A DNA stretch of 64,000 nt. It comes from Candidatus Marinacidobacterales bacterium (GTDB lineage Bacteria; Acidobacteriota; Vicinamibacteria; Marinacidobacterales; SMYC01). The position numbers were made by a program, and so were the translations under genes. Every line of letters begins with the position of its first letter. Position 1 is the stretch's first letter. Below are positions 1 to 64,000 of the stretch, in pieces. The notes under the pieces were generated by a model, which saw nothing but the letters and a program-made list of their open reading frames with translations, ran no database searches and was not told the origin of the DNA. The stretch is from the NCBI GenBank assembly GCA_965224085.1, contig CBDCYI010000004.1, forward strand, positions 781,170 through 845,169, in the 5' to 3' direction.

Positions 1-2
1 AT

Positions 3-494
3 TTGCCGTCCGGACTGATCGGCGCGGCAGGAGTCGTTGTTTACGCGGCGTTGATGTCCACCGCGGATACCAATCTGTATACCGCGGCTTCTGTCTTGGT
101 CCAGGACTTACTCGGATTGACTCGCCGAGGCCAATCGCCCAAAACAGTGGTTCGGTGCATACGCGCAGCGACGGTACTGATCGGTTCCGTCGCGTTCGTC
201 GTTGCGCTGCTGATCCCCGAACTCGTGCGGTTGGGTTTTCTTTACCTTGCGATGTACACCAGCGTCGGGGTCGTCGTATTGCTCAGCATTTTCGACCCTA
301 GGCTAAGCCCGCCCGCGTTGGCCTGTGGTCTAGCGGCGGGCGCCTCTGCGGTTCTCGGTGGGTTTCTGATGGTCAGCAGCGCGTGGCTGATTTGGTTGGG
401 CGCGGGGGCAAGCATTGGTGTCACACTACTCGTCGAAACCCTCGGCGGTCGACGGCAAACTGTACGGCCGGCGCGGCGCGAGACGACCCCATGA
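3..494 (+). CDS. Sodium:solute symporter (SSF) family protein, C-terminal fragment (5' partial at window edge)
   Basis: ORF with several hydrophobic helices and an SSF-like C-terminal region (STADTNLY...); it runs to the window start. Confidence 0.5.
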   Translation: MPSGLIGAAGVVVYAALMSTADTNLYTAASVLVQDLLGLTRRGQSPKTVVRCIRAATVLIGSVAFVVALLIPELVRLGFLYLAMYTSVGVVVLLSIFDPRLSPPALACGLAAGASAVLGGFLMVSSAWLIWLGAGASIGVTLLVETLGGRRQTVRPARRETTP

Positions 495-670
495 GTCCTC
501 CGGATTGCGGTGACCGTCAGCCGGCACGGCAACGAGAGTGGCACATGCGTCGTTTCGAAGCTCATGCAAACGCGAGCCGGGCGTCCCACGGCAAGGGGAC
601 GCAACGTGGAATCTGCGCCCCCGGGCGGTTCGTTCGCATCGAACAGCCCACAGGTCCTGCTGGCGACCAG

Positions 671-963
671 ACCGTTCTCATGACTGTTGGGGACGGGTTC
701 AGCCACGACGGTCCGACTGCCGTGTATTCTCAGACGGGAAAGACGAAAATCTTGATCGAGCGCGGGCGGGACGCCCGCTATCTGCCAACCGGGCACCTCG
801 TCGGTCGTCCGAAACGGAACGCTCATGGCCGCTCCGTTCGATCTCGAAGCACTCGAGCTCTCGGGCAGCTCCCGTCCCGATGGCGGAGGGCGTCACGACC
901 GCCCGGGAATCCGCCGCCGCGGCGTAGTTCAGCGTTTCGGAAACGGGCACGTCGGTCTATTAG
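671..963 (+). pseudogene. Degraded remnant of a TolB-like beta-propeller C-terminal domain, of the kind fused to Ser/Thr protein kinases
   Basis: Family-typical peptides lie in three different frames: ...ARYLPTGHLV / LMAAPFDLEALELSGS / PVPMAEGVTT...AAAA / FSVSETGTSVY. An in-frame TAG sits where CAG (Q) is expected, between AAAA and FSVSETGTSVY. Confidence 0.4.
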
Positions 964-1789
964 ACCGGTACCGCTCGGGCAAAGCGGACCCTCCCGTGGG
1001 TTAGTTTCGTCGACTTGACCGGAATCTACCGAGAACGCCCAGAGCCTCTCTACGTTGACGATGGTTGTCATATGAATCTCGCTGGCCAAACGATCATAAT
1101 CCGCTCGAAGCGATTGACCAATCGGCAGAAAACTGATAGCGACTCTCGCACTACCTCGAGCGGAGCCCCCTTCGGCCCGCATCTGGCCGACCAGTCGACT
1201 TGATCGCGAGAACGTTCTTTGCGGCATCCCCTAAATCGTCATATCCTTCATTTCAGGAATCCTCCTGGATGCTTTCGTTTAACTGATTCTGGCGAGATCC
1301 GCCGGCTCGTCCTCTCGGCAGTGGGAAGTGTCGCATGAGGTCGCGCAAGAGGGAGAGGGGCCGAGATTTTCATGAATTACTGATACAGGGCATTAGTGCT
1401 CGAACCCGCTAATCCTCGGTAGAGTCCGAGGTCATTCTTGGTGCTGGCAAGGCCGCTCCGACGACTTCATATCTAGACTAGATATTTCGAGGAGGAGCAA
1501 CGCAGCCAGCGCCGAAAAAGGACCCGGAATTTACCGGCAGGATTAGCAGGTTCGGGCACTGGGCTCGTGCACGTGGAGAGAATGAGATTTCTCGAGCTGG
1601 AATTTGCTTTGTCCCAGAGCTTTGGTCTCGGTGGAGGGAGCGCTTCCTTTCGCGTCCGGGGTGCTACGCACGCCGTGGCCACGGCGACATCGTTCTCCGT
1701 GCTCCTGATTCTAAGCTGGATCCTGGGTACGGACGACGCGATGATATCGACGAAGACATGGCCTCGGTGACGGACGCGTAAGGAGGAAT

Positions 1790-2626: not shown

Positions 2627-2654
2627 CGCGATGGGCTTCGATCGCGGCGGGATT

Positions 2655-2834: not shown

Positions 2835-3157
2835 CTAGCGGACGAGCGCCTGGATTTGCTGTGATGCCGCGCCTACCTTGCTCGTTACCGCACACAACGC
2901 CGGACGACCTGGCTCACGATGATCGAAACGGCGATCCGCAAACCGCGAATGCAGGCTCTGCCCATAACGCGGGGGTCGAACGTGATTCGACCAAACGTGG
3001 TTTCACCGGCCATCTTCGGACTCCCGCGCATGCATTCGACCTGAAACGGTCTCCGCGCGTCCCTTTGCTCAACGACTTCGTGGCTAGCTTGTGCCGGAGG
3101 TTGGAAGTCAGGGCGGGAAAATGAGTCAAATCATTGGAGAGGTGCTCCTTTGTTTTA

Positions 3158-3233
3158 TGGTGCCGGGGGCCAGAATTGAACTGGCGACGCAAGGATTTTC
3201 AGTCCTTCGCTCTACCGACTGAGCTACCCCGGC
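3158..3233 (-). tRNA. tRNA-Phe (anticodon GAA)
   Basis: Reverse complement folds as a cloverleaf: GCCGGGG acceptor stem, GCTC/GAGC D-stem, AAGGA-CTGAAAA-TCCTT anticodon arm with GAA at positions 34-36, GCCAG-TTCAATT-CTGGC T-arm, and a 3' CCA. Confidence 0.9.
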
Positions 3234-7768: not shown

Positions 7769-9157
7769 ATGATCGCCGCGATGATCCTCGCCGCTGGTGA
7801 ATCGCGGCGTATGGGCTCACCGAAAGCCCTGCTTCCTTTCCCCGAGCCCGCTGGCACGGAAAACACGTTTCTTGGCCACTTGCTCCAGGTTTTTGGCGCG
7901 ACGCGTGCGAAGCCCATCATCGTGGTGGTTGGCCACCACGCGGAGAAGCTTCGTCGTGAATTCGACTTCAGCAACGCTCGCGTCGTCGTGAACGAAAGCT
8001 ATCGCGACGGCATGCTGTCTTCCATTCTTGCCGGGCTCGAAGCCTTGTCGGGCGAGCCCGTCGACGGTGCGCTCATCTGTCCCGTCGACCATCCCGATGT
8101 CAGCCCTGCGGTCGTCGGCACGCTCATCGCTCGCTTCGAGCGTGAGCGGCCTCCCATCGTCCTCCCAACGTTCCAGGGACGCCGCGGACACCCCGTGTTG
8201 TTCTCGAGCGCCGTTTTCTCGGAGCTTCACGCCGCCCCCAAGGGGGTTGGCGCGCGCCGAGTCGTGTGGGATCATCAAGAGGATCTCGTAGAAGTGGAAG
8301 TTTCGCACGGGGGCGTGACGATCGATGTCGACACGCCGGGGGACTACCGTGCTTTCCGAAAGATATCGGTGGTGGACACACTCTCGCAATTGACATTGAG
8401 CCTTTCGAAAGAGCTCGAGCGGCTCGAAGTGCGTGGCGCGCGCTCGCTCGCCGCCGCGGATCGCGAGCGTGATCGCGCGCTTCTCGAAAGTCCCGCCAAG
8501 AGCGTTTTGACTCGCTACCACCGAGGTCTCGAAAAGGCGAAGGTCGCCCATTTGCGCGCCATCGACGACGCGGAAGCCGTGCGGGGGCAGGAGATCGTGG
8601 CCGCCGAAGAAAAGCGGCGGCGTGACGCGCTTCGCGAGGAGCGGAAGTTTCGCGACGCGCGGCGAAAAGCGGACATCAAGAAGCGCGAGGCGACGCAAAA
8701 AGCGCGCAAGACGTGGCGCGAAGCTGTCAAGAACGCACGTAAGAGCCGTCTCGCACAACGTCGCCAGATGCGAAAAGCCGCCGACGAGGCGCTCGAAAAA
8801 GCGCTCGACGAGGTGCGCGAGAATTACAACGAGTCCATCGAGGACGCTCGCCTCGCCCACCGCGCGGCGCTCCAAGACGACCTCGTCGACGAACGGCTCG
8901 CCGTCGAAAAGGCCCGCCGGAAATCCGAGCGGCTCATCACCGGCGCCGCCATCGCCCATGAGCGCGCGGTGGCGCAAGAAGAAGCCCGGCTGCGAAGCGA
9001 GCTCGTCCGCCACCCCGAAGCGCGGCTCACGCAGGAAGAGCACGATCGACGTGTCCACGAGCTGCGTCAAGCATCCGACGCGGAGAAGGAATCGCTCTTC
9101 CGCGCGTTCACGCGCGAGCGCCGCCAGCAGAGAACGACACGCCGCCGAAAAAAATAG
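7769..9157 (+). CDS. MocA/MobA-like nucleotidyltransferase fused to a long Glu/Arg/Lys-rich predicted single alpha-helix/coiled-coil C-terminal region
   Basis: N-terminal 200 aa reads ILAAGESRRMGSPKALLPF...ICPVDHPDV (MobA-like NTP_transf_3). The C-terminal 260 aa is ER/K-rich low complexity (RRKADIKKREATQKARKTWREAVKNARK...). The 417-aa antisense ORF was judged spurious. Confidence 0.6.
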   Translation: MIAAMILAAGESRRMGSPKALLPFPEPAGTENTFLGHLLQVFGATRAKPIIVVVGHHAEKLRREFDFSNARVVVNESYRDGMLSSILAGLEALSGEPVDGALICPVDHPDVSPAVVGTLIARFERERPPIVLPTFQGRRGHPVLFSSAVFSELHAAPKGVGARRVVWDHQEDLVEVEVSHGGVTIDVDTPGDYRAFRKISVVDTLSQLTLSLSKELERLEVRGARSLAAADRERDRALLESPAKSVLTRYHRGLEKAKVAHLRAIDDAEAVRGQEIVAAEEKRRRDALREERKFRDARRKADIKKREATQKARKTWREAVKNARKSRLAQRRQMRKAADEALEKALDEVRENYNESIEDARLAHRAALQDDLVDERLAVEKARRKSERLITGAAIAHERAVAQEEARLRSELVRHPEARLTQEEHDRRVHELRQASDAEKESLFRAFTRERRQQRTTRRRKK

Positions 9158-10364: not shown

Positions 10365-10575
10365 GGCTCAAAGTCTGAAAAAGCGCTCGTTGCCTTCATC
10401 GCCAGTGAGCCGCAAAGGCCCACGCCCGTTAACGTCCACAACGAAAATATCCTACTGCTCCCACTGCTCAGTGCCGCCGTGAACGACGGTCGAGGCCATC
10501 GCGAGCAATAATCCGTCGGAGGAGAACAAAGGGCGATGGCAAGGGCGAGAGAGGACGCTCGAGCTCCGATCGCGA

Positions 10576-11388
10576 TCAGTCCCTGAGCTCAGTGGAGAGA
10601 ACGCTGAGCTGAAACAGCTCGAGGTTTCTCATGGACTTCTTGAAAAAGCCCGCATATTCGAGCGCGGACGCATCCTGTTGGACCATGACAACCGCTTCCC
10701 TCCCGTCGCTGACGTCGACCGAGAACGATCGCGAAACGACGTCGACCCAGCGCTCGAACGATCGGTCACCTTCATTGACCTCGTAGAGCATTCGAATGAG
10801 CTCGCGTTCCGAGCTCGCCGAGGGCGGCAAATCGATACGGAGCGACACCTCCCCTTCCTCGGCTTCGAGAACGGAGCACTGGAAGCCATCCAGAGTCTCG
10901 ACGAGCAGAGCGTCGGTCGGGGAGAACGTGAACGAGTTGTAGAGCGTACCGCCATCCACCGTGTCGGGCTTCTCGTCGTCGAACGTGCATGCGCGGGCGT
11001 TGCCGATATGGATCCTCAACCTTATTCTCGTATCCGTCGCGTTGTCGCTTCCGGTCTCGAACGCGTACCAGAACGAGCGACCGCTCAGACGGAGTGAGAT
11101 GACGCGGCCATCACGCACAATGGTCTCTGCGGGTGCAGCGTCCGGCTGCACGTTTCCCGAGACTTCCGTCCCCGTCGCCCCGGCATCCTCGTAGTCGATG
11201 CGCTGGATGTCCTTTTTCGAGATGACGAGCTCGCCGTAGGCGGTCTCGAGCGTGATGACCATGTTGTTCGCCGCCACGAGCTCACCATGCAAGACGTCTC
11301 CGTTGTTCAGATAGACGACCTCGGCCGGCGAGAGGGCGGAGGCGGCCAAGATCAACACGATCCAGTACGCCCCGCGTATTCTTGACAT
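10576..11388 (-). CDS. Secreted hypothetical protein
   Basis: N-terminal signal peptide (MSRIRGAYWIVLILAASALSPAEV); no recognisable domain. Confidence 0.5.
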   Translation of the reverse strand: MSRIRGAYWIVLILAASALSPAEVVYLNNGDVLHGELVAANNMVITLETAYGELVISKKDIQRIDYEDAGATGTEVSGNVQPDAAPAETIVRDGRVISLRLSGRSFWYAFETGSDNATDTRIRLRIHIGNARACTFDDEKPDTVDGGTLYNSFTFSPTDALLVETLDGFQCSVLEAEEGEVSLRIDLPPSASSERELIRMLYEVNEGDRSFERWVDVVSRSFSVDVSDGREAVVMVQQDASALEYAGFFKKSMRNLELFQLSVLSTELRD

Positions 11389-11441
11389 AGTTTTTCTTTG
11401 TCGCCGAAAAACGCATTATAGCCCGTGGTAGCCTTCTGGAC

Positions 11442-12109
11442 ATGTACCGCGACCTCCAAACCATGGCGCTAACGGCCGGATATTTCGCTGTCCTGCTCGT
11501 GCTGGTAGAGACCTTGCGTCGTCGCGTCCATGTCGCGTCGGACGTCACGCGCAAGATCTTCCTCATGGGGACCGGGGCTTGGGCGCTCGTCGCCGTACGT
11601 GTGTTCGAAGATAAAGGCTCCGCCGTGCTCGTGTATGCGGCGCTCGCAGTACTTCTCTATCTCTCGTTTCGTTTCGAGCTCTTCGCTGGTATCGAGGATT
11701 CTGGTCCGAGCCTCGGCACCGTCTTTCTAGCGCTGGCGGCTGCGTCGCTCCTGCTTTGTTCTGGGGTGGGCGCATCGAGATAGGCGTCGCCGCCGTCGTT
11801 GCCGCTGTTTTTGGAGACGCGGCGGCGGCGCTCGTGGGGAGGCGCTTTGGGACGCGGAAATTCCGCTCCTTCGCTCACATGCGGAGCATGGAAGGCACGC
11901 TCGCGATGTTCCTCGTCTCCGGTCTCGTAATGGCCCCGATTCTCGCGGGCTCGGGCGGGCTCGGCTGGCACCAGGCCGTCGCATTCTCTCTCATCACCGC
12001 CACCGTGGCGGCTTCGGTCGAGGCCGGCTCGGCCTACGGAGTGGACAATCTGACGGTGCCGCTCGCGGCCGCGGCCACCCTCGTTCTCCTGTTTCGGTTC
12101 ACTCAGTAA
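11442..12109 (+). pseudogene. CTP_transf_1 family membrane protein (CdsA/dolichol-kinase-like), split by an apparent frameshift near 11756-11783
   Basis: The N-terminal hydrophobic ORF (11442-11783) and C-terminal ORF (11756-12109) are in different frames. The C-part carries the family motif GDAAAALVGRRFGTRKF...SMEGTLAMF. Confidence 0.5.
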
Positions 12110-12392: not shown

Positions 12393-13716
12393 TCAACCGA
12401 GCTGCGCGAGTATCTTCTCCACGATGGTGAGCCCCTGGTCGATGTCTTCTTTCGAGACGGTCAAAGCGGGCCGGAAGCGCACCGAGCATGTCCCGCAGCC
12501 GAGCAGAAGCAGACCATGGTCGAAGGCGAGCTTCAAGAAACGATTACGCACGTCGCCGCTCTTGAGATCGAAAGCACACATGAGGCCGCGGCCGCGGACG
12601 TTTACGACCTGCCCGCTTCGCTCGGCCGCGCAGGCATGGAGCTTGTCGAGCAGATAGCCTCCGACGTCGCGCGCGTTGTCAACAAGGCTGTCTTGCTCGA
12701 TGATCTCGAGGTAGCGGCCGAACCGCACCATGTCGACGAGATTGCCACCCCACGTCGAGTTGATGCGCGTCGATTCGGAGAATACGTTGTGCTCCACTTC
12801 GTCGATCCGGGAGCCGGCAAGAATCCCGCACACTTGGGTTTTCTTGCCGAAGCAAAGGATATCGGGCTCGAACCCATAATGCTGATAGGCCCACATTTTC
12901 CCCGTGAGGCCGACGCCCGTCTGCACTTCATCGACGATGAACAGAAATTCGTTTTCGTCGGCGAGCTCGCGAAGCGTGTGAAAAAACTCAGGACGGAAAT
13001 GACCGTCGCCGCCCTCGCCTTGAATCGGCTCGATGATGAGCCCGGCAATGTCGTCAGGGTTTTCGACAAGGGCCTGCTTGATTTGCTCGATGGCCTTTTT
13101 CTCTGCCGCGGCGACGGCCTCTACATGGTCCGCGAGCGGGAACGTGATCTTGGGGTTTTTGATGCGCGGCCAGTCGAACTTCGGGAAATACAGGGTCTTG
13201 CGCGGATCGGCTGTGTTCGTCAACGAAAGCGAATAGCCCGTGCGCCCGTGAAAGGCTTCTTGGAAGTGGAGGATCTTCTGGCCTTTATCACCCGAGACGC
13301 CGTTTTTCGCGTTGAAGCGCACTTTCCAGTCGAACGCGGTTTTGAGAGCGTTCTCTACAGCAACCGAGCCCCCCCGCAACCATGAACAGACGTGGTAGGG
13401 AATCCGGAATGGCCACCCGAGCGAACGTGTCGACGAACTCTGCCATCGGGATCGTGTAGATGTCGGAGTTGCTCGGATTGTGAATCGCCACCTCCGCCAT
13501 CCGTTTCATGAAGTCCGGCTCACGCATCTTGGGATGGTTGATGCCGACCGGGTTCGTTGCCAAGAAAGAGAAGAAATCCAAGAAACGGCGGCCTGCGCGG
13601 CTGTCGTAGATATACGAGCCTTGACTTCGCTCCAGGTCGAAGACGAGGTCGAATCCATCGACCAGCATGTGCTTTTCGAGCGTACCGCGTACATCGGTGG
13701 GCTTCATCGTCAACAT
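12393..13716 (-). pseudogene. lat: L-lysine 6-aminotransferase (class III aminotransferase), interrupted by a +1 frameshift in a G7 homopolymer
   Basis: N-part (13288-13716) and C-part (12393-13379) align end to end with LAT (FMVAGG|SVAVENALKTAFDWK, EPIQGEGGDGHFRPEFF, DEVQTGVGLTGKMWAYQ, FGKKTQVCG, LNSTWGGNL). The break sits at the C-run 13369-13375 on the plus strand; deleting one base gives an intact ~440-aa protein. Confidence 0.85.
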
Positions 13717-31431: not shown

Positions 31432-31432
31432 G

Positions 31433-35753: not shown

Positions 35754-35759
35754 GCTAGA

Positions 35760-36812: not shown

Positions 36813-36866
36813 GCATCAGAGAGCACGAGAGAGCCGATAGCAGATAGCGGGTCACCGAAATACCGT

Positions 36867-38448: not shown

Positions 38449-38623
38449 TTTCTCGAACTCCTTACGTCAACAAACATACTAGTATACTTGTTTCCGCCTC
38501 GCACACACAAGGCGGGGACATTGCGAAGACGGAGGAGTTCATGTTCGGGATGAAACCAAGGGGTCAGCGCGAGCCGGAGCGCGATTTGGGCTTCGGGTCC
38601 GCCCTACCGTCGCCTTCAGTCGC

Positions 38624-47773: not shown

Positions 47774-47781
47774 GGCGTCGA

Positions 47782-49392: not shown

Positions 49393-49478
49393 GGAGGGTC
49401 GATGTGGCGCGATTTTGGGGAGTTACCCCTGGCCCCCGCTTTCGAGGCCTTCGAAATTCTGAGGAGTCGTTTCGAAAA

Positions 49479-50900: not shown

Positions 50901-50914
50901 GACGAGCTCATTGA

Positions 50915-51699
50915 GCGCAGCCTACAATGTCGGACGTACGCTCGCGATTGTGCCGGCGACCATGGTGTTTCATCTGTCATCTAGGCAGAGCGAGGGATTG
51001 CTGCGATCGTTGTTCGCTCTGATGAAGCTAGACAATGATGTGCCCGATCACACCACGATCTCGAGGCGCAAGGCGAAGCTGGGTAAGGTCCCCTTCTACC
51101 AAGACAAGCAGAAGACGCCGTTGCACATCTTGATCGACAGCAGCGGTCTCGCTGTCCACGCCGGCCAGCTGCGCAGAGCACCAAATAGCAGAGACTATCG
51201 CAAGCTCCATCTGTGTGTCGACGAGCAGACTGGCGAAGTCGTCGCTTGCGAGCTGACGAGCAAAAGAGCCCGCGATTCATCGCGGGTTGCATCGCTTGTC
51301 GGACAGAGCGACAGTCCCATCTCATCGGCCAGAGCTGACACCGCATACGACGCCAGCGGCGTCTATGAGGCAATCGAGAATCACAGCGCTCATCGCTCGC
51401 CGAGGGTGCTGATACCGCCGCGCAAGGGCGCCCAGCTCGCATCGGGGCCGGCGAGCAGCCGACAGCGCAATCGCAACATTGCAGCACAAGCTCGGCTCGG
51501 CAAACGAAAGTGGCACACAGAATCGGGCTACAGCAAACGGAGCAAAGTCGAGACAACGTTCCATCGCTACAAGGCTATCGTGGGCTCAGCGATGCGAGCG
51601 AGAGGGTTGGCGGCACAGAGAGTCGAGGCAAGGATCGGGTGCAAGATTCTCAACACCATGACGGCGCTCGGGATGCCTGATAGCGAGATGATCGGATGA
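50915..51699 (+). mobile_element. IS5-family (IS903-group-like) transposase remnant, 5'-truncated
   Basis: LLRSLFALMKLDNDVPDHTTISRR...LHILIDSSGLAVHAGQ...RKLHLCVDEQTGEVVACELT...DTAYDASGVYEAI...YKAIVGSAMRARGL... matches the IS903-type DDE transposase from about residue 60 onward. The N-terminal ~60 aa are missing and the upstream sequence reads through from the host gene. Confidence 0.7.
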
Positions 51700-52221: not shown

Positions 52222-53610
52222 ATGGCACGTCGCGTCAGGACAAAAAGCAGTCGTCAAGCAAGACGGAAAAAATTGGAGCACGAGCTCGACACGGTAAATC
52301 TAGATGCTGCAGGGATTGATATTGGAGCGGAGTCAATCGTGGCGGCAGTCCCGAAGGGGCGCACTCCTGAGGGCGAACATGTCCGCACGTTTCAGAGCTT
52401 TGTATGCTCGCTGCGAGAGCTGGCCAATTGGCTGAAGGCGTGCGGCGTGTGCACGGTGGCGATGGAGTCGACCGGAGTTTATTGGATTTCACTGTACGAG
52501 TTGTTGGAAGACGAGGGATTTGAAGTCTATCTGGTCGATGCTCGCAAAGTGAAAAACGTATCTGGGCGCAAGTCAGACGTGTCGGATGCGGAGTGGCTGC
52601 AACAGCTGCATACATTCGGGCTACTCCCAAAAACCTTTCGGCCGGAATCGGCGATTTGCGAGCTAAGGGCATACACCCGCCAACGAAGCTCGCTGGTGGA
52701 GTCAGCGGCTCGCCACATTCAGCATATGCACAAAGCGCTCAACCAAATGGGGCTCCAGCTACAACACGTCCTGCGCGACGTGACCGGAGTCACCGGCCTT
52801 GCGATCATCCGAGCGATCTTGAGAGGAGAGCGAGATCCTCGTGACCTAGCAAAACTGAGGCATGAACGTTGCCACAACGATGAGGCCACGATCGCGAAAG
52901 CCTTAGAAGGTAACTATCGGAGCGAGCATGTTTTCGCTCTTCAACAGTCGGTGGAGTTGTACGATTTCTATCAAGAGAAAATGGAAGACTGTGACAAGCG
53001 GATCGAGAGATGCCTGTCCAAATTGGAGACCCGGCCTCAGGACGCTCGGCCTAAGCCGAAACCACGGACACGGCGAGCGCGTAGCGGCAACGGGCCGCGC
53101 TTTCCGCTCGCTGAGTCTCTATTGGGACTCACGGGGGTGGACCTAACCAGGGTTCCCGGCTTAGGTAGCTATGCCGTTCTGCAGCTCGTAGGAGAAACCG
53201 GTTGCGACATGAGCCCGTGGAAAAGTGACAAGCACTTCACCTCATGGCTAGCTCTCGCACCGAATAATAAGGAGTCCGCTGGTCGAATCTTTCGCCGGGC
53301 CACCCCAATGAGCTCCAGTCGTGCTGCAAAACTCTTTCGCCTCGCCGCGTGCGCTGTCCGCAATACCCAAACCGCGCTCGGCGCTTTCTATCGACGAATC
53401 CGATCGCGACGAGGTGCTCCAAAGGCCATCACAGCTACCGCCCGTAAAATAGCGACCATCTACTTCCGCATGCTTGCGACTGGAGAGGAGTTCATTGAGC
53501 TCGGTCAGGACGCCTATGAAAGGCAATACCAGCAACGCCTCCTGAGTAATCTCCGACGCAAAGCTACCCGACTCGGCTTCAGCCTCGTTCCCGATCAATC
53601 CATATCATGA
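52222..53610 (+). CDS. IS110-family transposase (DEDD_Tnp_IS110 + Transposase_20)
   Basis: AGIDIGAES...VAMESTGVYW (RuvC-like DEDD N-domain) and a C-terminal Tnp_20 domain. The ATG at 52222 carries SD AAAGGAG; local GC is lower than the flanks. Confidence 0.85.
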   Translation: MARRVRTKSSRQARRKKLEHELDTVNLDAAGIDIGAESIVAAVPKGRTPEGEHVRTFQSFVCSLRELANWLKACGVCTVAMESTGVYWISLYELLEDEGFEVYLVDARKVKNVSGRKSDVSDAEWLQQLHTFGLLPKTFRPESAICELRAYTRQRSSLVESAARHIQHMHKALNQMGLQLQHVLRDVTGVTGLAIIRAILRGERDPRDLAKLRHERCHNDEATIAKALEGNYRSEHVFALQQSVELYDFYQEKMEDCDKRIERCLSKLETRPQDARPKPKPRTRRARSGNGPRFPLAESLLGLTGVDLTRVPGLGSYAVLQLVGETGCDMSPWKSDKHFTSWLALAPNNKESAGRIFRRATPMSSSRAAKLFRLAACAVRNTQTALGAFYRRIRSRRGAPKAITATARKIATIYFRMLATGEEFIELGQDAYERQYQQRLLSNLRRKATRLGFSLVPDQSIS

Positions 53611-53786: not shown

Positions 53787-53996
53787 CTATCCGGGCGCGC
53801 CGGCACTTCGGGCTGAATTCCTTTCGTAGTGTTGAGAAATGGAATCGTCTACTGAGATGGGGCCTTCAGCGATCCGCTCGGCGAGCGTTTGACCTTCGAC
53901 GAGCTCGAGAACGAGTGCGTTCTGCTCGAACCGAGAAATACTCGCAATGTTCGGATGATTCAGAGATGCGAGCAGCTTCGCTCCCGGGGACAGTGG
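53787..53996 (-). pseudogene. Ser/Thr protein kinase catalytic-domain fragment (subdomains IV-V only)
   Basis: AKLLASLNHPNIASISRFEQNALVLELVEGQTLAERIAEGPISVDD matches the kinase subdomain IV-V consensus (L.HPNI...L.LE.VEG.TL...GP). It lacks both N- and C-terminal parts and is flanked by IS110 and vapC. Confidence 0.5.
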
Positions 53997-54080
53997 CATG
54001 ACTCGATGTCTACCCGCGCCGAAGCATCGACGCGAAGAGTACAAACAAGTCGTGCAGACGAGTACCACGGAAATGGGCGC

Positions 54081-54503
54081 CTAGCGATCGTGCCAGTCTT
54101 CGATCGTCAGTCCGTCAAAGCCTTGATAGTCTCTGACGTTGGCCGTCACGAGCACCAACGCATGGACACGGGCGACGGCTGCAATTTGCCCGTCGGCGAA
54201 GGAAGGCGTATTGCCCGAGGCGGTCAGCCGCACTCGCTCCGACGCGTGCCACACGGCCGCAGCGTCATCGTAGCCGAGAACGGGAACGTGAGGACCGATC
54301 ACGTTCCTGAGGTACGCTTCGAGCGACGATCGTCGGCGCGACGGTTCGAGCCGATAGCAGCCGAACCAAAGCTCGTGCCAGACCACCGATGCGGTGGCGA
54401 TGCGTCCTTCGGCTTCGACGATTCTTTTCTGAACCCGCGGATTCGGTGTTGGCTTCGCCGGCTCGGAGAGAACATTGGTATCGAGAAGGTACGTGAGCGT
54501 CAA
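54081..54503 (-). CDS. vapC: Type II toxin VapC (PIN-domain ribonuclease)
   Basis: LLDTNVLSE acidic PIN motif; 4-nt overlap with the upstream antitoxin. Confidence 0.85.
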   Translation of the reverse strand: MTLTYLLDTNVLSEPAKPTPNPRVQKRIVEAEGRIATASVVWHELWFGCYRLEPSRRRSSLEAYLRNVIGPHVPVLGYDDAAAVWHASERVRLTASGNTPSFADGQIAAVARVHALVLVTANVRDYQGFDGLTIEDWHDR

Positions 54504-54790
54504 AGGCGAACGTCCCGCCCCCGTGACCGATCGCGTACGCCGTCGTAGGCGGCCTCGATGTCCAGTTCCTCGAGGTCGACATTTCTCCTGAAGTCGTCGA
54601 TGGCACGACTCAGCGGGACGGAGCGCTTCATCTGGGCGTCATACCGATCCGTCGCGATGAGCACGGCCACCGGCTCGCCACGCCGCGTCAACGTCACGAT
54701 CAAGCCGCGCTCGGCGTCGCGCACGAGCGACGGAAGGTTCTCCCGTGCCGCCGAGATGGATACCTCTTTCCTCTGCTCCACGATGTACAT
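54500..54790 (-). CDS. vapB: Type II antitoxin, Phd/YefM family (VapB)
   Basis: SISAARENLPSLVRDAERG..IVTLTRRGEPVAVLIATDRYD matches the YefM fold consensus. Confidence 0.75.
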   Translation of the reverse strand: MYIVEQRKEVSISAARENLPSLVRDAERGLIVTLTRRGEPVAVLIATDRYDAQMKRSVPLSRAIDDFRRNVDLEELDIEAAYDGVRDRSRGRDVRL

Positions 54791-54806: not shown

Positions 54807-55029
54807 ACTGATTTCAATGGGAGACGGGCGCGAGACAATCTCATTAAACGCCGAGCTAAGTGGCATGGGCTCGATGATCTACCTTCCCGCTAACCTTTTC
54901 TCAGTCAGTATGAAACGACCAGCTCCGTGACGTAGCGTCGTGGATTAGGCTACGGAACGGAAATCTCAGTGGCCCAGAGCCACGATACGAAAGGAGCTGG
55001 TCGTATGAAGGATTGTACCTTTACTAGGA

Positions 55030-55272
55030 TTGGATGTACATGCGGAGACGATAGCGGCGTTTGTGGCGGACGAGGACGGCACGGAACGCAATCTGGGCGT
55101 GGTTGCTCACCGTCCGTCGTCGATCGAAAAGCTGTTGAAGAAGGTCGGCTCGAAGGAACGCATCCACGCGGTCTATGAAGCCGGTCCGACGGGGTACCAA
55201 TCTCACCTGAGCGATGGGTTCGTCGAATCGATGTCGCAAACCCAGAAATACTACAATCTTTCAAAGATCTAG
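55030..55272 (+). mobile_element. IS110-family transposase N-terminal fragment (80 aa)
   Basis: MDVHAETIAAFVADEDG...VYEAGPTGY matches the start of IS110 transposases; the rest is missing. Confidence 0.6.
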
Positions 55273-56030: not shown

Positions 56031-56252
56031 TCACGCCACCTTTCGCTCGATGCCCTCTTGAACTTTGAACTCTGCGACGAGGCTTCTCAGCTCCGCGGCC
56101 ATTCGAGAAAGCCCGTCCGCTGCACTTTGGGTCTGGCTGACGCCGGCCGAGGCGCTCTGCGCCGCCTCAGCGACACCGACGATGTTCTGAGCGATCTCGC
56201 TACTGCCCTTGGCCACCTCAGCGACGTTCCGCCCCATCTCATTGGCCGTCAC
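56031..56252 (-). pseudogene. Methyl-accepting chemotaxis protein C-terminal fragment (last ~70 aa of the signalling domain)
   Basis: EVAKGSSEIAQNIVGVAEAAQSASAGVSQTQSAADGLSRMAAELRSLVAEF matches the MCP signalling-domain tail; there is no upstream HAMP, ligand or transmembrane region. Confidence 0.55.
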
Positions 56253-57982: not shown

Positions 57983-59665
57983 TTAGGCCTCGGATCCGGG
58001 GAATCGAATCAGCTTGCCCCGAATCCGCCCGCCAATGAGGGCGGAGTCCCACGCGATGCTAACAGGCGTGAGGTGCGGCGCGCGGGAGCGGATGAAACGC
58101 CCACGAGTAAAAGCCGGCGTCCCTTCCGGAGGCTCCGAAACGGCTCTTTCGATCTCGCCCGGTGCCACCAGGAACCGGTGCACGTTTCCGGTCGCCGCGA
58201 ACTTCTCCGCATATCCTTCTTCGAGCTCGTGATAGCGAAGATCGATCGTCTTGAGCATCGCGAGGTCATTCTCATCGCCACAGGCCTCGAGAAGATAACG
58301 CTTCGTCACCCAGTCGAGGCGCCCGACGAGCCGCGACATCTCTTTGCGCTCGAGAGCCACGAGCACGTCTTCCCATTGCTCCACGACTTCGGACGCCTCG
58401 AGTGAGGTCGTCTTCGACGCGCTCAAAAAGCCTTTCGCTTTCTCGAGGTAGTAGCGCTGAAGCTCTAAGGCGCTCACCTCGCCGCGATCGCTCTGCACCA
58501 CGGCTTCGAGGCTAGGATCCGCCGTTAGCGCGTGAAGTGCGGCGACGGGTTTCGGGAGGTTCGGAGCGTCGCGGAGCCAGCCGGCTTCGGCCATATCGAT
58601 CACGAGCGCGGTCGTCCCCATTTTCAAGAACTCGGTGTCCTCCAGCATGCTGGAATCCGCGAGGCCGAGTTGCAGGCGTTGCCGCCGGCGAAACAAGCTC
58701 AGGAGCGGCAATATGTGGAAATGCGCCGCCGCGAGGGCCGGCTTCATCAAGTTACCGGTATCGAAGATCGCGCGGTCGTTAGGGCTGATCGAAAAACGCA
58801 TTTTTCGCTTGATCGCCGGCGCTTTTTCGGACAGCACGAAACGCCCGTCTGGCTCGACGCTTCCCGAACCGCTCAGCACGGGACGCGACACGAGAAATGC
58901 CAGCGTCTTTTGTCGCACGCGGCGGAAGGCGAAAAGACGGAGCAGCAAAGAAAGGGCTGCAATGACAGGCAAGGTCACAACATAGCTCAGCCAATAGAGG
59001 AAGCGTCCGAGTAGGTTCTCGAGCTTGTGATCTTCGAGCGACGTGAGACGAGCAAACCATCGGCGGTGTCGCAACGGCGGAAGCGCCGCCACGATGGCCG
59101 CAGCCGTTCCGACGACGATGGCCGCGACCAGGAGCGCCATGAAGACCAACCAGCCGAGGACCACCGTCGCTGCGAGAAGCGGCATGAGGAGTGTGAGGCC
59201 AAGCCGGTACAACCAGAGCACGCGGCCGGGGGCGACCCGGCATTCGAAGCTCTCCTGCGCGCCATAGACATGCCCTTCGACGTCACGGCAGTTTTTCAGA
59301 AGCCCGAGGCGACCGGGAAAACCGCTAGAACCGAGCTCCTGCTCGGCTTCGGGGATCGCTTTGCGGAGAAGCGATTCCTGAGCTTTCTGGTAGAGCAGGA
59401 GCTGCCCCGGCCCGCGACATTCGGGCGTGGCGCCTTCGATGAGACCGCCTTCCACATGGTAAGGCAGATACTCGTAGTGAAAGGCGCCACCATTCTCTGT
59501 GAAGATCTGGGGCCGCTCGGAGTACATGCCCGGCTCGGTGCGAACCCGTCTCCCGATGGCACGGGCCAACGAGTCGTAGATTCTATCGTTTCCTGGATGA
59601 GCGAAATCGGGAGAAAAGCGAATGGCGTATTCAGTCTCCTGTCCCATCAGGCGACCGAACAACAC
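57983..59665 (-). CDS. Pup-ligase/deamidase (PafA/Dop) family protein with a ~100-aa hydrophobic insertion (predicted 3 TM helices)
   Basis: N-terminal RLMGQETEYAI (PafA RIMGIETEYG motif) and GATPEC. C-terminal half aligns with PafA/Dop (LVIDMAEAGWL, SALELQRYYLEKAKGF, RLDWVTKRYLLE, IDLRYHELEEGY, TRGRF...). Residues ~150-250 read VLWLYRLGLTLLMPLLAATVVLGWLVFMALLVAAIVVGTAAAIVAAL...LYWLSYVVTLPVIAALSLLLRLFAF; GTG start. Confidence 0.75.
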   Translation of the reverse strand: MLFGRLMGQETEYAIRFSPDFAHPGNDRIYDSLARAIGRRVRTEPGMYSERPQIFTENGGAFHYEYLPYHVEGGLIEGATPECRGPGQLLLYQKAQESLLRKAIPEAEQELGSSGFPGRLGLLKNCRDVEGHVYGAQESFECRVAPGRVLWLYRLGLTLLMPLLAATVVLGWLVFMALLVAAIVVGTAAAIVAALPPLRHRRWFARLTSLEDHKLENLLGRFLYWLSYVVTLPVIAALSLLLRLFAFRRVRQKTLAFLVSRPVLSGSGSVEPDGRFVLSEKAPAIKRKMRFSISPNDRAIFDTGNLMKPALAAAHFHILPLLSLFRRRQRLQLGLADSSMLEDTEFLKMGTTALVIDMAEAGWLRDAPNLPKPVAALHALTADPSLEAVVQSDRGEVSALELQRYYLEKAKGFLSASKTTSLEASEVVEQWEDVLVALERKEMSRLVGRLDWVTKRYLLEACGDENDLAMLKTIDLRYHELEEGYAEKFAATGNVHRFLVAPGEIERAVSEPPEGTPAFTRGRFIRSRAPHLTPVSIAWDSALIGGRIRGKLIRFPGSEA

Positions 59666-59685
59666 CGACGTGGCGTGGCGACGCG

Positions 59686-59835
59686 CTATTCGCCGCCCTC
59701 GGGCACGATGGTCTCGCTGAGGTAGCGATCCTTGAGGGTGCGAGCGTCCTTCGCGATCTCGAGGATAATTCGCTGAGCGCTGTGCTCGCGCGCGTCGTGC
59801 TCTTCTTCGATTTCAAATTCGAGGATGGGTTCCAT
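59686..59835 (-). CDS. 49-aa acidic protein ending in -PEGGE; candidate Pup-like modifier (not in ORF track)
   Basis: Manual translation gives MEPILEFEIEEEHDAREHSAQRIILEIAKDARTLKDRYLSETIVPEGGE*. SD GGAG lies 11 nt upstream of the ATG at 59835; the stop is 20 nt before the ligase start. C-terminal Gly-Gly-Glu as in Pup(E). Confidence 0.5.
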   Translation of the reverse strand: MEPILEFEIEEEHDAREHSAQRIILEIAKDARTLKDRYLSETIVPEGGE

Positions 59836-59977
59836 GAGTGTTCACACTCCTACTTCGCTACGTCCACCATACCACAGTCTGCCATTCGCTGCAGCCTCAG
59901 CACGGCCACCAGCCGGAGCCGGCGCTCTGGAGTTGCGCGTTTCTAAATTGATCTCTTCGAGCGCACATCGTGTCGGG

Positions 59978-61355: not shown

Positions 61356-62252
61356 CTACCGGGCGGACGCCCGCCGTCCCACAGCGAGCGCCTCTCGGGA
61401 CGTGACGATGAAGACGCGGAAGCCTTGTTCCAATCGCTTCTCTATATCGTCGGGTCCGGCGGTAATACCGCACGCCACATCGAACTCTTTACACGCAGCG
61501 AGCACGGTCTGGATCGCGTTCTCGATCGCTTCATCGTCGCCTTCATAGGCACGCCGCAAATCGCCCGGTCCGGGAATCACGATGCTAACCCCTTCTGTCG
61601 AGACGATGGCGCGCGTGTTCTCGATACCGATCTTGTCCTCGATGAGCAGCATGTTGATGAGCTCTCCCCGGGGACTCGCGGGCCAAACGTCCGCGCGCGA
61701 CGTATAATCCTCTCGACTGACGCCCCAGTAGCGAGCCGCAACGCCTTGCCCATTTGGCCGAAGCCCCTTCGGCCGATAGCGCATGGACCGGACCGCATGC
61801 TCCGCGTCCTCGGCGCTCTCGACATGCGGAAAGACGACGCCGTGGATGCCGGCGTCGAGAATACGCTGTGTGCGATCCTGCGCTTCCACGAATCCATCGC
61901 GGATGGGCGGGATGCGCGTAATGATAGGGTGCTCGTTGAAGAGGTTTTTCCGGCCGACAAGATCGGCCCGGTCGAGCATGAACTGCATGTAGACTTGCAT
62001 GCCGGGAACGTCGAACGGGCCGCGCTCCATCGAATAGAAGATGAAGTCGGCTTCAGTAGTAACGACCTCCATGGCGCTTTCCGGTGTCTTTTCTCCGGAG
62101 AAAATGCCAAAAACCGGCTTTCCCGAATCGAGAAGCGTGACGATCTTGTTGATTCTTTTTTCTTGGGCCGGTGCACTCGAGCTCGACATCAGGACGATCA
62201 TGCCTCCGAAACAAATAAAACGCCAAAGCGTATCTTTCAATCTTGTTGGCAT
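61356..62252 (-). CDS. HpcH/HpaI aldolase/citrate-lyase-like family protein with an N-terminal hydrophobic signal-like segment
   Basis: HpcH-fold motifs (GKPVFGIF, ADFIFYSMERGPFD, GIHGVVFPHVESAEDAEHAV); start at the ATG 62250-62252 (MPTRLKDTLWRFICFGGMIVLM). Confidence 0.65.
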   Translation of the reverse strand: MPTRLKDTLWRFICFGGMIVLMSSSSAPAQEKRINKIVTLLDSGKPVFGIFSGEKTPESAMEVVTTEADFIFYSMERGPFDVPGMQVYMQFMLDRADLVGRKNLFNEHPIITRIPPIRDGFVEAQDRTQRILDAGIHGVVFPHVESAEDAEHAVRSMRYRPKGLRPNGQGVAARYWGVSREDYTSRADVWPASPRGELINMLLIEDKIGIENTRAIVSTEGVSIVIPGPGDLRRAYEGDDEAIENAIQTVLAACKEFDVACGITAGPDDIEKRLEQGFRVFIVTSREALAVGRRASAR

Positions 62253-62331
62253 AACGGCGGAGACTACCAGTACCGAACGGCTCACGGCAAGATGGCCCGA
62301 GAACACGCGCTGAACTAAACTAAGCTCCTCA

Positions 62332-63654
62332 ATGGAAATGGCCCGACAAACGACGCCCATGCTCTCCGGATGGGGCCGCCTCTCGAAACCCGGCAAGGAA
62401 GTGTTCTCCGAGGACCTGAAAGCGCTGAGCGAAAACGCCGTGCTTTCTCGGGGACTCGGCCGCTCCTACGGCGACTCGGCGCTCCCACCGCCCGGCCAGC
62501 TAGAAGTGGCGACGACAACGCTCGCCGATCGCGTGCTCGGCTTCGATGAGACTTCTGGCATCCTCCGTGCGGAGGCAGGCATTTCGCTTCGCGCGCTGAA
62601 CCGTTTGTTTCTTCCGAGGCGTTGGTTCACTCCAGTAACACCGGGCACGCAGGACGTGACGCTCGGCGGCATGGTCGCGGCGGATGTCCACGGGAAGAAC
62701 CACCACGTCGAAGGTACGTTCGGACGACACGTGCGCGCCATCCTACTGCGCGTTGCCGACGGCCGATTGATCGAGTGCTCGCCGACCCACGAGCACGAGC
62801 TCTTCTGGGCGAGCGTGGGTGGTATGGGGCTCACGGGTCACATCCTCGAAGTCACGTTCCAGATGCGCGCCATCGCGTCGCCGTGGATCTACGAAGAGCG
62901 CGAAACGGTGCCGAACATGGCAACGCTCGCCGCCGCGCTGAAAGACGCCGCCCCCGATTGGCCGTTCACCGTCGGCTGGCTCGATTGCCTCGGCAAAGGG
63001 CGAGGCATTCTGGTTCGCGGACGATGGGCCGAGGCCAGAGAGGCGCCCTCGGATCCGCCGCCGCTGCTATCGACGGTCACCGTGCCCTTCGAGCTTCCCA
63101 ATTGGGTTCTCAACCGCTGGTCGATGCGCGCTTTCAACATCATGACCTACTACGTGCAAGGAAGCTCCCGTGGGAAGATCGTTCACCCCGAAGCGTTTTT
63201 CTATCCGCTCGACAAAGTGCGTCACTGGAATCGCATTTATGGCCGCCGAGGATTCATCCAATACCAATGCGTTCTGCCCTCGGCGGGCGGCCCCGACTCC
63301 ACGCGGAGGTTCCTCGATGTGCTCGACGAGCACCGCGCCGCCGCCTTCTTGTGCGTGGTCAAGGACTGCGCCGAAGAGGGCCAAGGCATGCTCTCCTTTC
63401 CGCTTCCCGGGATCTCTATCGCTTTGGACCTCGCCGTCAACGCCCGCACGCAAACACTCGTCGACGGCCTCAACGAGACAGTCCTCGCGCAAGGGGGGCG
63501 CGTCTATCTCGCGAAGGATGCTTTCACGCGGGAGGAGCATTTTCGCGACATGGAGCCGCGCCTCGATGCGTGGCTTCTCGTCCGCAAACGTTGGGACCCC
63601 GAGCTTCGGATCAAAAGCGCGCAATCCGTGCGTGTGTTGGGAGATCCGGCTTGA
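62332..63654 (+). CDS. FAD-dependent oxidoreductase, DprE1-like (decaprenylphosphoryl-beta-D-ribose oxidase family)
   Basis: GWGR, RGLGRSYGD, GGMVAADVHGKNHH, and ELFWASVGGMGLTGHI match the DprE1 family. Confidence 0.8.
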   Translation: MEMARQTTPMLSGWGRLSKPGKEVFSEDLKALSENAVLSRGLGRSYGDSALPPPGQLEVATTTLADRVLGFDETSGILRAEAGISLRALNRLFLPRRWFTPVTPGTQDVTLGGMVAADVHGKNHHVEGTFGRHVRAILLRVADGRLIECSPTHEHELFWASVGGMGLTGHILEVTFQMRAIASPWIYEERETVPNMATLAAALKDAAPDWPFTVGWLDCLGKGRGILVRGRWAEAREAPSDPPPLLSTVTVPFELPNWVLNRWSMRAFNIMTYYVQGSSRGKIVHPEAFFYPLDKVRHWNRIYGRRGFIQYQCVLPSAGGPDSTRRFLDVLDEHRAAAFLCVVKDCAEEGQGMLSFPLPGISIALDLAVNARTQTLVDGLNETVLAQGGRVYLAKDAFTREEHFRDMEPRLDAWLLVRKRWDPELRIKSAQSVRVLGDPA

Positions 63655-64000
63655 AGGTCGCGCTCCTCGGGGGCACGAAAGGCATTGGCCGCGCGCTCGG
63701 ACGCTTGCTCGCCGAGAAAGGCCACAACATCTGTCTACTCGGCCGCAACCCCGAGGAGCTTCTGGCGTCCAGCAGCGACTTGCAAATCCGAGGAGGCACA
63801 TCGCAATCCGTGGGAACTGCGACATGCGACCTCCTCCGACCCGAAACCTTCGCTCCCGCTCTCGCCGCCGCGGAGGAGCAGCTCCAAGGACTCGACACGG
63901 TCGTGGTCACAGCGGCGCAGTTCGCCTCGCAGCCCGAGCTCGAAACCGACCGCGAGCGCACGCGCAACCTACTCGTGGTTAATTTTGCGCACACCGTAAC
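63651..64000 (+). CDS. Short-chain dehydrogenase/reductase, DprE2-like (3' partial at window edge)
   Basis: TTG start overlaps the DprE1-like stop (TTGA). KVALLGGTKGIGRALGRLL Rossmann motif; not in the ORF track because it has no ATG. Confidence 0.55.
   Translation, partial: MKVALLGGTKGIGRALGRLLAEKGHNICLLGRNPEELLASSSDLQIRGGTSQSVGTATCDLLRPETFAPALAAAEEQLQGLDTVVVTAAQFASQPELETDRERTRNLLVVNFAHTV

Follow-up and report, generated by a model that had tools for sequence, protein, structure and literature searches.

A 64-kb stretch of an uncultured Acidobacteriota genome carries a dense set of gene remnants that probably reflect recent, lineage-specific decay

To characterize gene disruption in a Candidatus Marinacidobacterales bacterium (Acidobacteriota, Vicinamibacteria), we analyzed a stretch of 64,000 nt, hereafter the window (GenBank assembly GCA_965224085.1, contig CBDCYI010000004.1, positions 781,170 to 845,169 of the forward strand), in which many genes are frameshifted, interrupted by stop codons, or internally deleted. 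By our own tally of gene calls, ~14 to 19 of ~60 to 66 loci are disrupted (about 21 to 29%), and true pseudogenes or remnants make up roughly one-fifth to one-quarter of the loci in the window. The original prediction, made from the sequence alone, had proposed at least 15 disrupted loci in the 64 kb. Homologue alignment or profile coverage upheld 12 of these 15, to within ~20 nt, and the other three (a propeller, a protein kinase, and the tail of a methyl-accepting chemotaxis protein [MCP]) are weak. The explanation that we consider likely is real, recent, lineage-specific decay of dispensable genes through deletion bias and the activity of insertion sequences (IS).

Exact-protein look-ups showed that the window is near-identical to an ENA metagenome contig, ERZ25072076:ctg246125_29x_l (8,700,493 bp, linear, 29x); over ~52 kb, the two differ by 8 substitutions, two 1-nt indels, and one 34-nt tandem duplication. 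Logan contigs, which are assembled from k-mers, of run ERR13605531 were 100% identical to the window over ~12 kb (stretches of 9.4 kb and 2.6 kb) and showed a single-base difference across a further 6.4 kb. No paper or sample metadata were found for the run and assembly accessions. Among relatives, L002 is a sister strain (ERZ25067264, 7x) that is 99.7 to 99.9% identical to the window, and L097 (contig_13 of ERZ25072074, a 1.70-Mb contig) is a sibling with ~94 to 98% identity. L098 comes from ERZ26167216 (a 4.11-Mb contig); its lat protein is 94% identical, and its aligned DNA blocks are 74 to 92% identical. The nearest GTDB genomes are environmental Acidobacteriota metagenome-assembled genomes (MAGs) of the Vicinamibacteria and "Marinacidobacterales" type. 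The two closest, L009 and L010, have 87 to 91% DNA identity to the window, and L010 was treated as a short-read MAG, an assumption taken from its record name. L011, L014, L015, and L016 are more distant relatives.

Large internal deletions were found in five genes. The gene for an inward-rectifier K+ channel, Kir (38457 to 38998, plus strand), has lost 520 bp at a junction at 38605/38606, which leaves its N-terminal 54 codons and C-terminal 127 codons in different frames. In sister strain L002, these 520 bp are present and the IRK/Ion_trans_2/IRK_C gene is intact at 325 aa; L009 also has an intact gene. The junction is blunt, with no microhomology. A breakpoint hot spot shared with L010 (38606 to 38611) was considered and rejected: L010 retains more of Kir, and the blastn boundary is the window's own deletion. 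The neighboring BNR/Sortilin-Vps10 propeller gene (BNR; 38988 to 41329, minus strand) lacks ~257 codons (~770 bp), with a frame change at ~40487 to 40490. Orthologous open reading frames (ORFs) of 1051 to 1073 aa in L014, L015, and L016 align to it at residues 45 to 315 and 573 to 1069, and residues 316 to 572 are missing. The BNR junction is identical in L001 and L002 and is common to three assemblies, one of which is strain L002, which differs from the window at Kir.

The third gene encodes a purple-acid-phosphatase-like (PAP-like) metallophosphoesterase (45172 to 45981, minus strand) and has an in-frame 501-bp deletion with a junction at 45394/45395. It matches only positions 19 to 88 of 191 of Metallophos and is 83% identical to 444-aa orthologues; according to the alignment, the deletion takes out the last two metal-binding/catalytic motifs, VxxH and GHxH. 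In L098, these 501 nt are present and the gene is intact at 444 aa. A phmmer search of the PDB with the PAP-like protein returned no match. The last two genes are CocE/NonD (Peptidase_S15) remnants, and an intact 608-aa CocE paralogue that sits just outside the window served as the reference for both. Remnant 1 (CocE1; 24363 to 25330, minus strand) keeps residues 23 to 204 and 515 to 607 in two frames by tblastn and has lost residues 205 to 514 (~310 codons); it matches only positions 1 to 166 of 262 of Pfam Peptidase_S15. The same 275-aa CocE1 product is present in two Logan runs and in ENA, and a Logan contig is 100% identical across the gene. Remnant 2 (CocE2; 30823 to 31458, minus strand) keeps residues 11 to 135 and 558 to 607 in one frame, with residues 136 to 557 removed by an in-frame deletion of ~420 codons, and it also has an in-frame TGA at 31198 to 31200, across which the L035 orthologue aligns. 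Its profile matches run from positions 1 to 32 of Peptidase_S15 through the TGA to positions 47 to 110, directly joined to positions 168 to 216 of PepX_C, and its product is on record in NCBI, Logan, and ENA. Of the five large intragenic deletions, two preserve the reading frame, as chance predicts, with no sign of selection to keep it.

Two further loci have lost whole downstream regions. The first gene of an Opp-like operon, encoding a family-5 solute-binding protein (SBP5), is reduced to a remnant of ~250 codons in three frames with stops (36142 to 36858, minus strand). Positions 1 to 30 and 28 to 90 of SBP_bac_5 match it in two frames, and tblastn with the 534-aa ORF of L009 matches three frames with three stops. 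Sibling L097 retains 3.9 kb of the operon here. A 717-aa ORF that overlaps this remnant (34185 to 36338, minus strand) and reads as "SBP_bac_5 + AMP-binding" is a chance in-frame concatenation, a false domain fusion, of the SBP remnant, ~130 codons, and a 517-aa AMP-binding gene (34185 to 35744, with its real start at ~35744). The AMP-binding orthologous ORF in L011 is 523 aa, and the ~130-codon middle part resembles a small gene that precedes the glyoxalase gene in L011, L014, and L016.

The other such locus is an exopolysaccharide (EPS) locus, of which two broken genes are left in the window. A Wza-like PEP-CTERM-type polysaccharide export protein (49404 to 50058, plus strand) has a 5-nt deletion at ~49625. 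Its Poly_export match covers positions 25 to 76 in the C-terminal frame and positions 4 to 76 once the frame is repaired, and it matches positions 18 to 165 of TIGR03027; the L098 gene, with 5 extra nt at 49625, is intact at 192 aa. The outer-membrane barrel gene that follows (50084 to 50979, plus strand) has three lesions in total: a 2-nt deletion at ~50289 in a GC repeat, a second frameshift at ~50845, and loss of its 3' end. Homologues of 452 to 462 aa are colinear with it over three successive frames (50105 to 50290, 50277 to 50840, and 50854 to 50979), and the match ends at residue 291 of 452, such that the last ~160 codons and the entire downstream EPS locus are gone. At its 3' end, the barrel gene directly adjoins an IS5 transposase that is truncated at its own 5' end. 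No Pfam or NCBIfam profile matched the barrel gene.

Three more genes are broken by single bases. The L-lysine 6-transaminase gene lat (12393 to 13716, minus strand) carries an extra G in a G7 run at 13369 to 13375, and positions 10 to 62 and 92 to 403 of the Aminotran_3 profile lie in two frames. Removing one G yields a 440-aa protein that is 94% identical to intact 440-aa orthologues and contains the expected ...FMVAGGSVAVENALK... motif; look-up of this exact repaired allele found no record. All 120 listed homologues are single proteins, mostly of 439 to 450 aa. The 142-aa and 309-aa fragments of lat are present in NCBI, Logan, and ENA records that include several contigs of >1 Mb. A TPR protein gene (19746 to 21328, plus strand) is broken into pieces of 439 aa and 88 aa by the loss of 1 nt at 21061 (CCGGTG to CCGTG). 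The extra G is present in L010, where the ORF is continuous; Logan contig L004 matches the window at 100% identity in this region, and the 439-aa product is on record in NCBI, Logan, and ENA. Lastly, a PaaI/4HBT thioesterase pseudogene (29797 to 30257, plus strand) has a 1-nt deletion at ~29984 that is not in a run. Its Pfam 4HBT match is confined to the downstream frame, and the 177-aa orthologous ORF of L011 (stop to stop) aligns in two frames at residues 28 to 87 and 89 to 176. L011 reads ...PFRRELCRSSERPELHGGV..., and the window encodes PFKRELC and then, in the next frame, SSKVPEIHGGV, which indicates that one base is missing. The ENA contig shares the PaaI lesion.

Some of the split genes might still be functional: lat through transcriptional or ribosomal slippage, TPR as two polypeptides, and PAP-like and CocE2 in new roles. 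The lat lesion is indeed a +1 change in a slippery G7 run, the downstream TPR piece has a GTG start that overlaps the TGA stop (GTGA) and a ratio of nonsynonymous to synonymous substitution rates (dN/dS) of 0.20, and the PAP-like and CocE2 deletions are in frame. However, the PAP-like deletion eliminates both metal-binding motifs, CocE2 combines its nonsense codon with the loss of ~70% of the protein, lat is encoded as one protein in every listed homologue, and a low pairwise dN/dS is expected in any recently broken gene. We therefore find retained function hardly credible.

Indel errors in long-read assemblies split ORFs, and the disruptions could in principle be mainly artefacts of long-read metagenome assembly, namely, homopolymer indels, wrong consensus, or collapsed or chimeric joins between strains. 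The name style of the ENA contig (ctgN_29x_l) matches what we take to be that of metaMDBG, an assembler for PacBio HiFi reads, and by its name the contig would thus derive from accurate long reads. The polishing step of metaMDBG mainly corrects homopolymer errors (PMC11392814). One lesion, in lat, does fall within a homopolymer, and two ORFs that are intact in the window are split in the sibling assembly L097. In addition, three changes are private to the window. A hypothetical 222-aa protein (11442 to 12109, plus strand), termed "CdsA-like" in the original prediction, has lost one G at 11752/11753; the base is present in ENA contig L003 and Logan contig L089, where the gene is intact at 222 aa, and exact look-up of the 113-aa product of the window found no record. 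The name CdsA is unsupported, as no Pfam or NCBIfam profile matches this protein. The other two changes are in an ADH gene (28838 to 29848; affected stretch 29687 to 29760, plus strand), which contains a 34-nt perfect tandem duplication (29687 to 29720 and 29721 to 29754). Six nucleotides after the duplication, a 1-nt deletion restores the frame, so that 14 residues stand in place of three (IID), with the C terminus still in frame. Where the record has ...GRITPIIDRVLPLT... (325 aa), the window has ...GRITPTRRSGRGTYHAYHRRVLPLT... (336 aa). The duplication and the 1-nt deletion are both missing from the ENA contig, and exact look-up of the 336-aa product found no record; the change could reflect a rare strain with a compensated frameshift or a quirk of the assembly.

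The remaining evidence speaks against an artefact. Six of the seven frameshifts that had been claimed as single-base changes lie outside homopolymers, and lat is the only one of the small indels in such a run (in TPR, GG became G). Single-base changes were borne out for lat, PaaI, TPR, and "CdsA-like"; the other three are deletions of 2 nt (barrel, with a second shift), 5 nt (Wza-like), and ~770 nt (BNR). Only "CdsA-like" and the ADH duplication are missing from other assemblies. For lat, TPR, CocE1, CocE2, and PAP-like, the exact broken products are present in NCBI, ENA, and Logan, and for BNR and Kir they are present in NCBI and ENA. Most lesions recur in other ENA assemblies, and five recur in Logan k-mer assemblies: the lat and TPR frameshifts are reproduced there and in several ENA assemblies, as are, in Logan, the junction-spanning products of CocE1, CocE2, and PAP-like, and the BNR junction is present in three assemblies. 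The remnants thus do not behave as assembly chimeras, since their junction products recur across assemblies. L010, the assumed short-read MAG, also has a nonsense codon and deletions in the region, and the near-identical ENA contig differs from the window by so few indels over ~52 kb. Collectively, these data make assembly artefacts a very improbable main cause. An error-prone assembly, which the original prediction had invoked for part of the disruptions, would explain at most a small part of them: one of the seven frameshifts ("CdsA-like") is private to this assembly, and even the lat lesion is reproduced in a k-mer assembly. An artefact is credible solely for the window-private changes; as judged from the sequences compared, "CdsA-like" and perhaps ADH may be consensus errors or rare variants. 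Compared with long-read artefacts in general, the window shares ORFs split by 1-nt indels, one lesion in a G7 run, and one private frameshift; it differs in that most lesions are longer than 1 nt, lie outside homopolymers, and are reproduced, with deletions of hundreds of bases among them.

The relatives retain the same genes in intact or differently broken form. The search for intact versions, which had been suggested as a check, was positive at syntenic positions for Kir (L002 and L009), BNR (L014 to L016), TPR (L010), PaaI (L011), and PAP-like, Wza-like, and barrel (L098), and SBP5 is longer at the syntenic position in L009 and L097. At Kir, the window has its 520-bp deletion, L097 has an IS630 insertion, and L010 has the N terminus only. 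The BNR deletion of the window is the same in L002, L009 and L097 keep the last ~70 to 100 codons, and the gene is absent from L010. PAP-like is absent from L097. Behind M19, the Opp-like operon is represented in the window by its ~250-codon stub, in L009 by a long ORF, in L097 by a partly present operon, and in L010 by a 201-codon stub fused to a Cu-oxidase gene. The EPS locus, of which the window keeps the two broken genes, comprises in L098 Wza, the barrel, a 530-aa protein, an ATPase, TPR, Asn synthase, and glycosyltransferases, and it extends for at least 10 kb, including a chain-length gene. L010 has a TGG-to-TAG nonsense codon in VanZ and its own deletions in CocE1 (a further 323 nt), Kir, and BNR, and L098 itself has lost most of M14 and its neighbors. 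Because L097 splits M19 (344 + 86 aa) and a TPP enzyme (three pieces, with +1 and +2 indels that jointly restore the frame), we distrusted its small frameshifts and dropped its lat, Kir, and BNR fragments as extra independent lesions; these splits reflect either a noisier assembly or further decay of that lineage. We trusted its structural differences, namely, the IS630 element within Kir, the lack of PAP-like and BNR genes, and the Opp-like genes that it keeps. Gene content between the anchors M19, M14, Cu-oxidase, and PGM varies even among strains that are >99.7% identical, and the region is structurally variable between close strains.

Several side observations concern this variability. The IS630-family (DDE_3) element in L097 Kir (10470 to 11531; window 38666 to 38669, with a 4-nt alignment overlap at the insertion site) was inserted ~60 bp from the 520-bp junction of the window, and a link between this insertion and the adjacent deletion is conceivable. 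The first 30 codons of the L010 Cu-oxidase gene (8345 to 8434) correspond to a stretch of the SBP remnant read out of frame (window 36217 to 36306); in the window, this stretch and Cu-oxidase (28840) are separated by 7.4 kb that hold the genes from ADH to AMP-binding. Insertion of these 7.4 kb into the 5' end of the window's Cu-oxidase gene is disfavored: the stretch is an alternative frame of the SBP remnant, and the island genes of L011 are in the same order. The more likely cause is a deletion in L010, which would have created its chimeric Cu-oxidase start. Separately, the CitMHS and polysaccharide-deacetylase genes (46025 to 48792) are 72% identical to those of L097 (16199 to 18962) within flanking genes that are 94 to 98% identical, a pattern that suggests allele replacement by recombination.

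That the window has undergone real gene decay, as originally proposed, is supported by the large deletions and the nonsense codon, together with broken products in several sources and relatives that are intact or differently broken. The lesions, their reproducibility across assemblies, and the states of the same genes in relatives were observed directly; from them we infer relaxed selection as the cause, as well as the individual mutational mechanisms. Since close relatives broke or lost the same genes independently, selection appears relaxed across the clade. Deletion bias, slippage, and IS activity would then erode the genes stepwise through three processes. In the first, intragenic deletions of 0.5 to 1.3 kb would have removed 520 bp of Kir, 501 bp of PAP-like, ~770 bp of BNR, ~0.9 kb of CocE1, and ~1.3 kb of CocE2, and multi-gene deletions would account for the missing Opp-like operon beyond the SBP stub and the missing EPS locus beyond the barrel gene. 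The second would comprise small changes (lat +1 in G7, TPR -1, PaaI -1, Wza-like -5, barrel -2, and one TGA), and the third would be IS activity, represented by the truncated IS5 that adjoins the barrel gene and by identical IS110 copies across the genome. The targets would be dispensable accessory functions: peptide- and amino-acid-scavenging hydrolases, a binding protein, the breakdown of lysine, a K+ channel, a phosphatase, a propeller protein that is secreted, and the export of exopolysaccharide.

The density and the substitution patterns were assessed next to this interpretation. The background share of pseudogenes in bacteria is 1 to 5% (Liu et al. 2004, PMC522871), and at a 5% background the binomial P for the density of the window is ≤1e-6. 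The 10 kb flanking the window look intact, as do 3.3 to 11.4 kb and 56.3 to 64 kb within it (except for the MCP tail upstream of chorismate synthase); thus, the excess is concentrated in the central 45 kb. In comparisons with L009 and L010, intact neighbor genes had a dN/dS of 0.11 to 0.14 and zero frame-breaking indels, and the SBP remnant (1.17) and the N-terminal stub of Kir (0.86) had higher values from small counts. The original prediction had offered relaxed selection or reductive evolution as the cause. The reductive part is not demonstrated in a contig of at least 8.7 Mb with normal purifying selection on intact neighboring genes, and a safer wording is relaxed selection on particular dispensable genes combined with a deletion and IS bias.

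A number of points weigh against decay through relaxed selection as we describe it. The dN/dS of TPR (0.09 for the N-terminal and 0.20 for the C-terminal piece), CocE1, and the C-terminal piece of Kir is 0.09 to 0.20, near that of intact genes and again based on small counts. We attribute these low values to recent breakage, and the case for relaxed selection consequently comes from parallel loss. The density covers the 64-kb window, and the other regions sampled, the flanks of IS copies, are fragment-rich and hence biased. Per-site allele support comes from agreement between assemblies, and some Logan and ENA assemblies may share read sets. Finally, besides the window, the PaaI and Wza-like lesions have one corroborating assembly each, and the 203-aa piece of the barrel gene is on record solely in the ENA contig ERZ25072076.

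Pseudogenes of the ordinary bacterial kind and their deletional bias are well documented (Liu et al. 2004, PMC522871; Kuo & Ochman 2009, 2010, PMC2817411, PMC2916853; Danneels et al. 2018, PMC6054270). As in those cases, native or accessory genes in the window were disabled by frameshifts, nonsense codons, IS, and, above all, deletions, and their remnants were removed piecemeal; the young ones have one lesion and look selected, and the old ones (SBP and barrel) have several and evolve neutrally. The window departs from this background in its local density (~21 to 29% of loci versus 1 to 5%) and in that several genes have a large central deletion with both ends kept.

The window also contains IS and other mobile elements. 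The IS5-family transposase gene at the end of the barrel gene (50962 to 51699, plus strand) lacks the first ~53 residues and matches positions 54 to 289 of 289 of NCBIfam transpos_IS5_2. It is followed by an intact 462-aa IS110-family transposase gene (52222 to 53610, plus strand; positions 2 to 342 of 343 of NCBIfam transpos_IS110) and by the N-terminal fragment of a second one (55009 to 55269, plus strand; positions 1 to 64 of 155 of Pfam DEDD_Tnp_IS110, E = 5e-4). An identical 462-aa IS110 transposase is present at three more sites on the 8.7-Mb contig (L093 to L095) and in two other assemblies, and a further 462-aa copy is cut by the end of L094. The IS110 flanks (loci L091 to L096) contain fragments of DctM, SNF2, Type_ISP_C, and the C terminus of D-Ala-D-Ala ligase, split kinases, and other IS families (IS66-like, rve, ISAZ013, and IS200/605). 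Between the IS110 copy and the IS110 fragment lies an intact pair of a PIN toxin and a PhdYeFM antitoxin (54081 to 54790, minus strand), and a CopG/DUF6036 pair is present just outside the end of the window (L006). At 18446 to 18592 (plus strand), in a poorly coding 0.85-kb gap, a fragment of a large serine recombinase (positions 1 to 49 of 102 of Pfam Recombinase, E = 4e-5) represents a mobile-element scar. This fragment, the IS110 N-terminal fragment, and the truncated IS5 are remnants beyond the original list.

Flexible genomic islands and hypervariable chromosomal regions occur in bacterial pangenomes, and the remnants might accordingly be mostly debris of failed horizontal transfer in such an island rather than products of native decay. 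The 48- to 54-kb stretch, which holds the IS5, the IS110, the second IS110 fragment, and the PIN/PhdYeFM pair, has a G+C content of 0.56 to 0.59 versus ~0.61 and poor codon scores. There is also the recombinase scar at 18.4 kb, the gene content from M19 to Cu-oxidase differs among L002, L010, L097, and the window, and presence/absence variation is seen at 28.8 to 36.2 kb. At 48 to 56 kb, such variation coincides with atypical composition and mobility genes. Pseudogenes are, moreover, enriched in transferred DNA (Liu et al., PMC522871). On the other hand, lat, TPR, PaaI, Kir, BNR, PAP-like, Wza-like, barrel, and SBP have syntenic orthologues in relatives that are 70 to 94% identical and have native composition and codon scores, and they are therefore native genes that were broken in place. 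The region resembles flexible islands in its variable content between conserved anchors, its IS elements, its toxin-antitoxin pair, and its recombinase scar; unlike them, most of its broken genes are syntenic and native, and no intact integrase or island boundaries were found. Thus, we regard failed transfer as an improbable origin for most of the remnants, and the decay of native genes is the explanation that we carry forward.

A broader form of decay would be that this large-genome lineage is at an early stage of genome degradation, with an IS bloom, at least 20% pseudogenes chromosome-wide, and sibling lineages that lose the same genes for peptide scavenging, an ion channel, and exopolysaccharide independently, triggered, for example, by a niche shift to a host-associated or otherwise sheltered life. 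IS expansion and mass pseudogenization are known from Mycobacterium leprae and Shigella. In the recently host-restricted Sodalis glossinidius, pseudogenes reach almost 50% (PMC7067036, PMC3091646). The window is like such host-restricted bacteria in its several identical IS copies, its many broken genes, and the differing lesions of the same genes in siblings. It is unlike them in the contig size of at least 8.7 Mb in the normal constraint on housekeeping neighbors, and in having no known host association, with the comparison here covering 64 kb and the IS flanks. We consider chromosome-wide early degradation unlikely on present data; if true, it would be the first such case described in Acidobacteriota, with strain-level resolution from long-read metagenomes.

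Local decay of dispensable genes is an ordinary and well-known process, and the window is a new, well-resolved instance of it in a new lineage that should surprise specialists only modestly. Its value lies in several points. An ORF that is split or truncated in an accurate long-read metagenome assembly is not necessarily an error, and comparing assemblies, k-mer assemblies, and sister strains allowed decay to be told from artefact locus by locus. The window also offers a snapshot of parallel loss in an uncultured, large-genome phylum, with sister-strain resolution at Kir: Kir, BNR, CocE, PAP-like, the Opp-like operon, and the EPS locus were removed through different lesions in sibling lineages. 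For annotation, at least 12 ORFs should be flagged as pseudogenes, including the chimeric 717-aa ORF, which could be mistaken for a new domain fusion.

Of the further disruptions in the original prediction, the in-frame TGA of CocE2 and the large deletions in CocE1, CocE2, SBP5, Kir, and PAP-like are those described above, and the remaining candidates are weak. A possible PD40 beta-propeller remnant (302 to 1015, plus strand) gave nine matches in an exhaustive phmmer search (E = 1e-5 to 6e-4, query residues 118 to 178), one of them (P0187) with PD40 repeats, and its TAG (925 to 927), which had been listed as an in-frame stop, lies in a neighboring frame. A possible Ser/Thr protein-kinase fragment (53870 to 54010, minus strand) was read by eye from ...LNHPNIASI...LVLELVEGQTLAERI... 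and matched kinase residues 67 to 115 in a phmmer search of the PDB with an E value of 0.08. Neither the propeller ORFs nor the kinase fragment matched Pfam or NCBIfam. The possible C-terminal tail of an MCP (56031 to 56252, minus strand) begins right after the chorismate synthase stop codon and weakly matches the last 70 to 80 residues of three chemoreceptor chains (E = 0.011 to 0.09). It has no match to Pfam MCPsignal, and its sole profile match, to the unrelated Mce4_CUP1, is insignificant (E = 0.064); the tail sequence is identical in two Logan runs.

Two minor observations lie away from the broken genes. A weak DUF433 fragment (2888 to 3130, minus strand; positions 1 to 26 of 56, E = 0.002) stands beside a tRNA-Phe gene (3158 to 3233) and may be the scar of a tRNA-integrated element. 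Pupylation occurs mainly in Actinobacteria and Nitrospirota. In the window, a gene for a PafA-like Pup ligase of 554 aa adjoins a 49-aa ORF that looks like Pup (57983 to 59838, minus strand).

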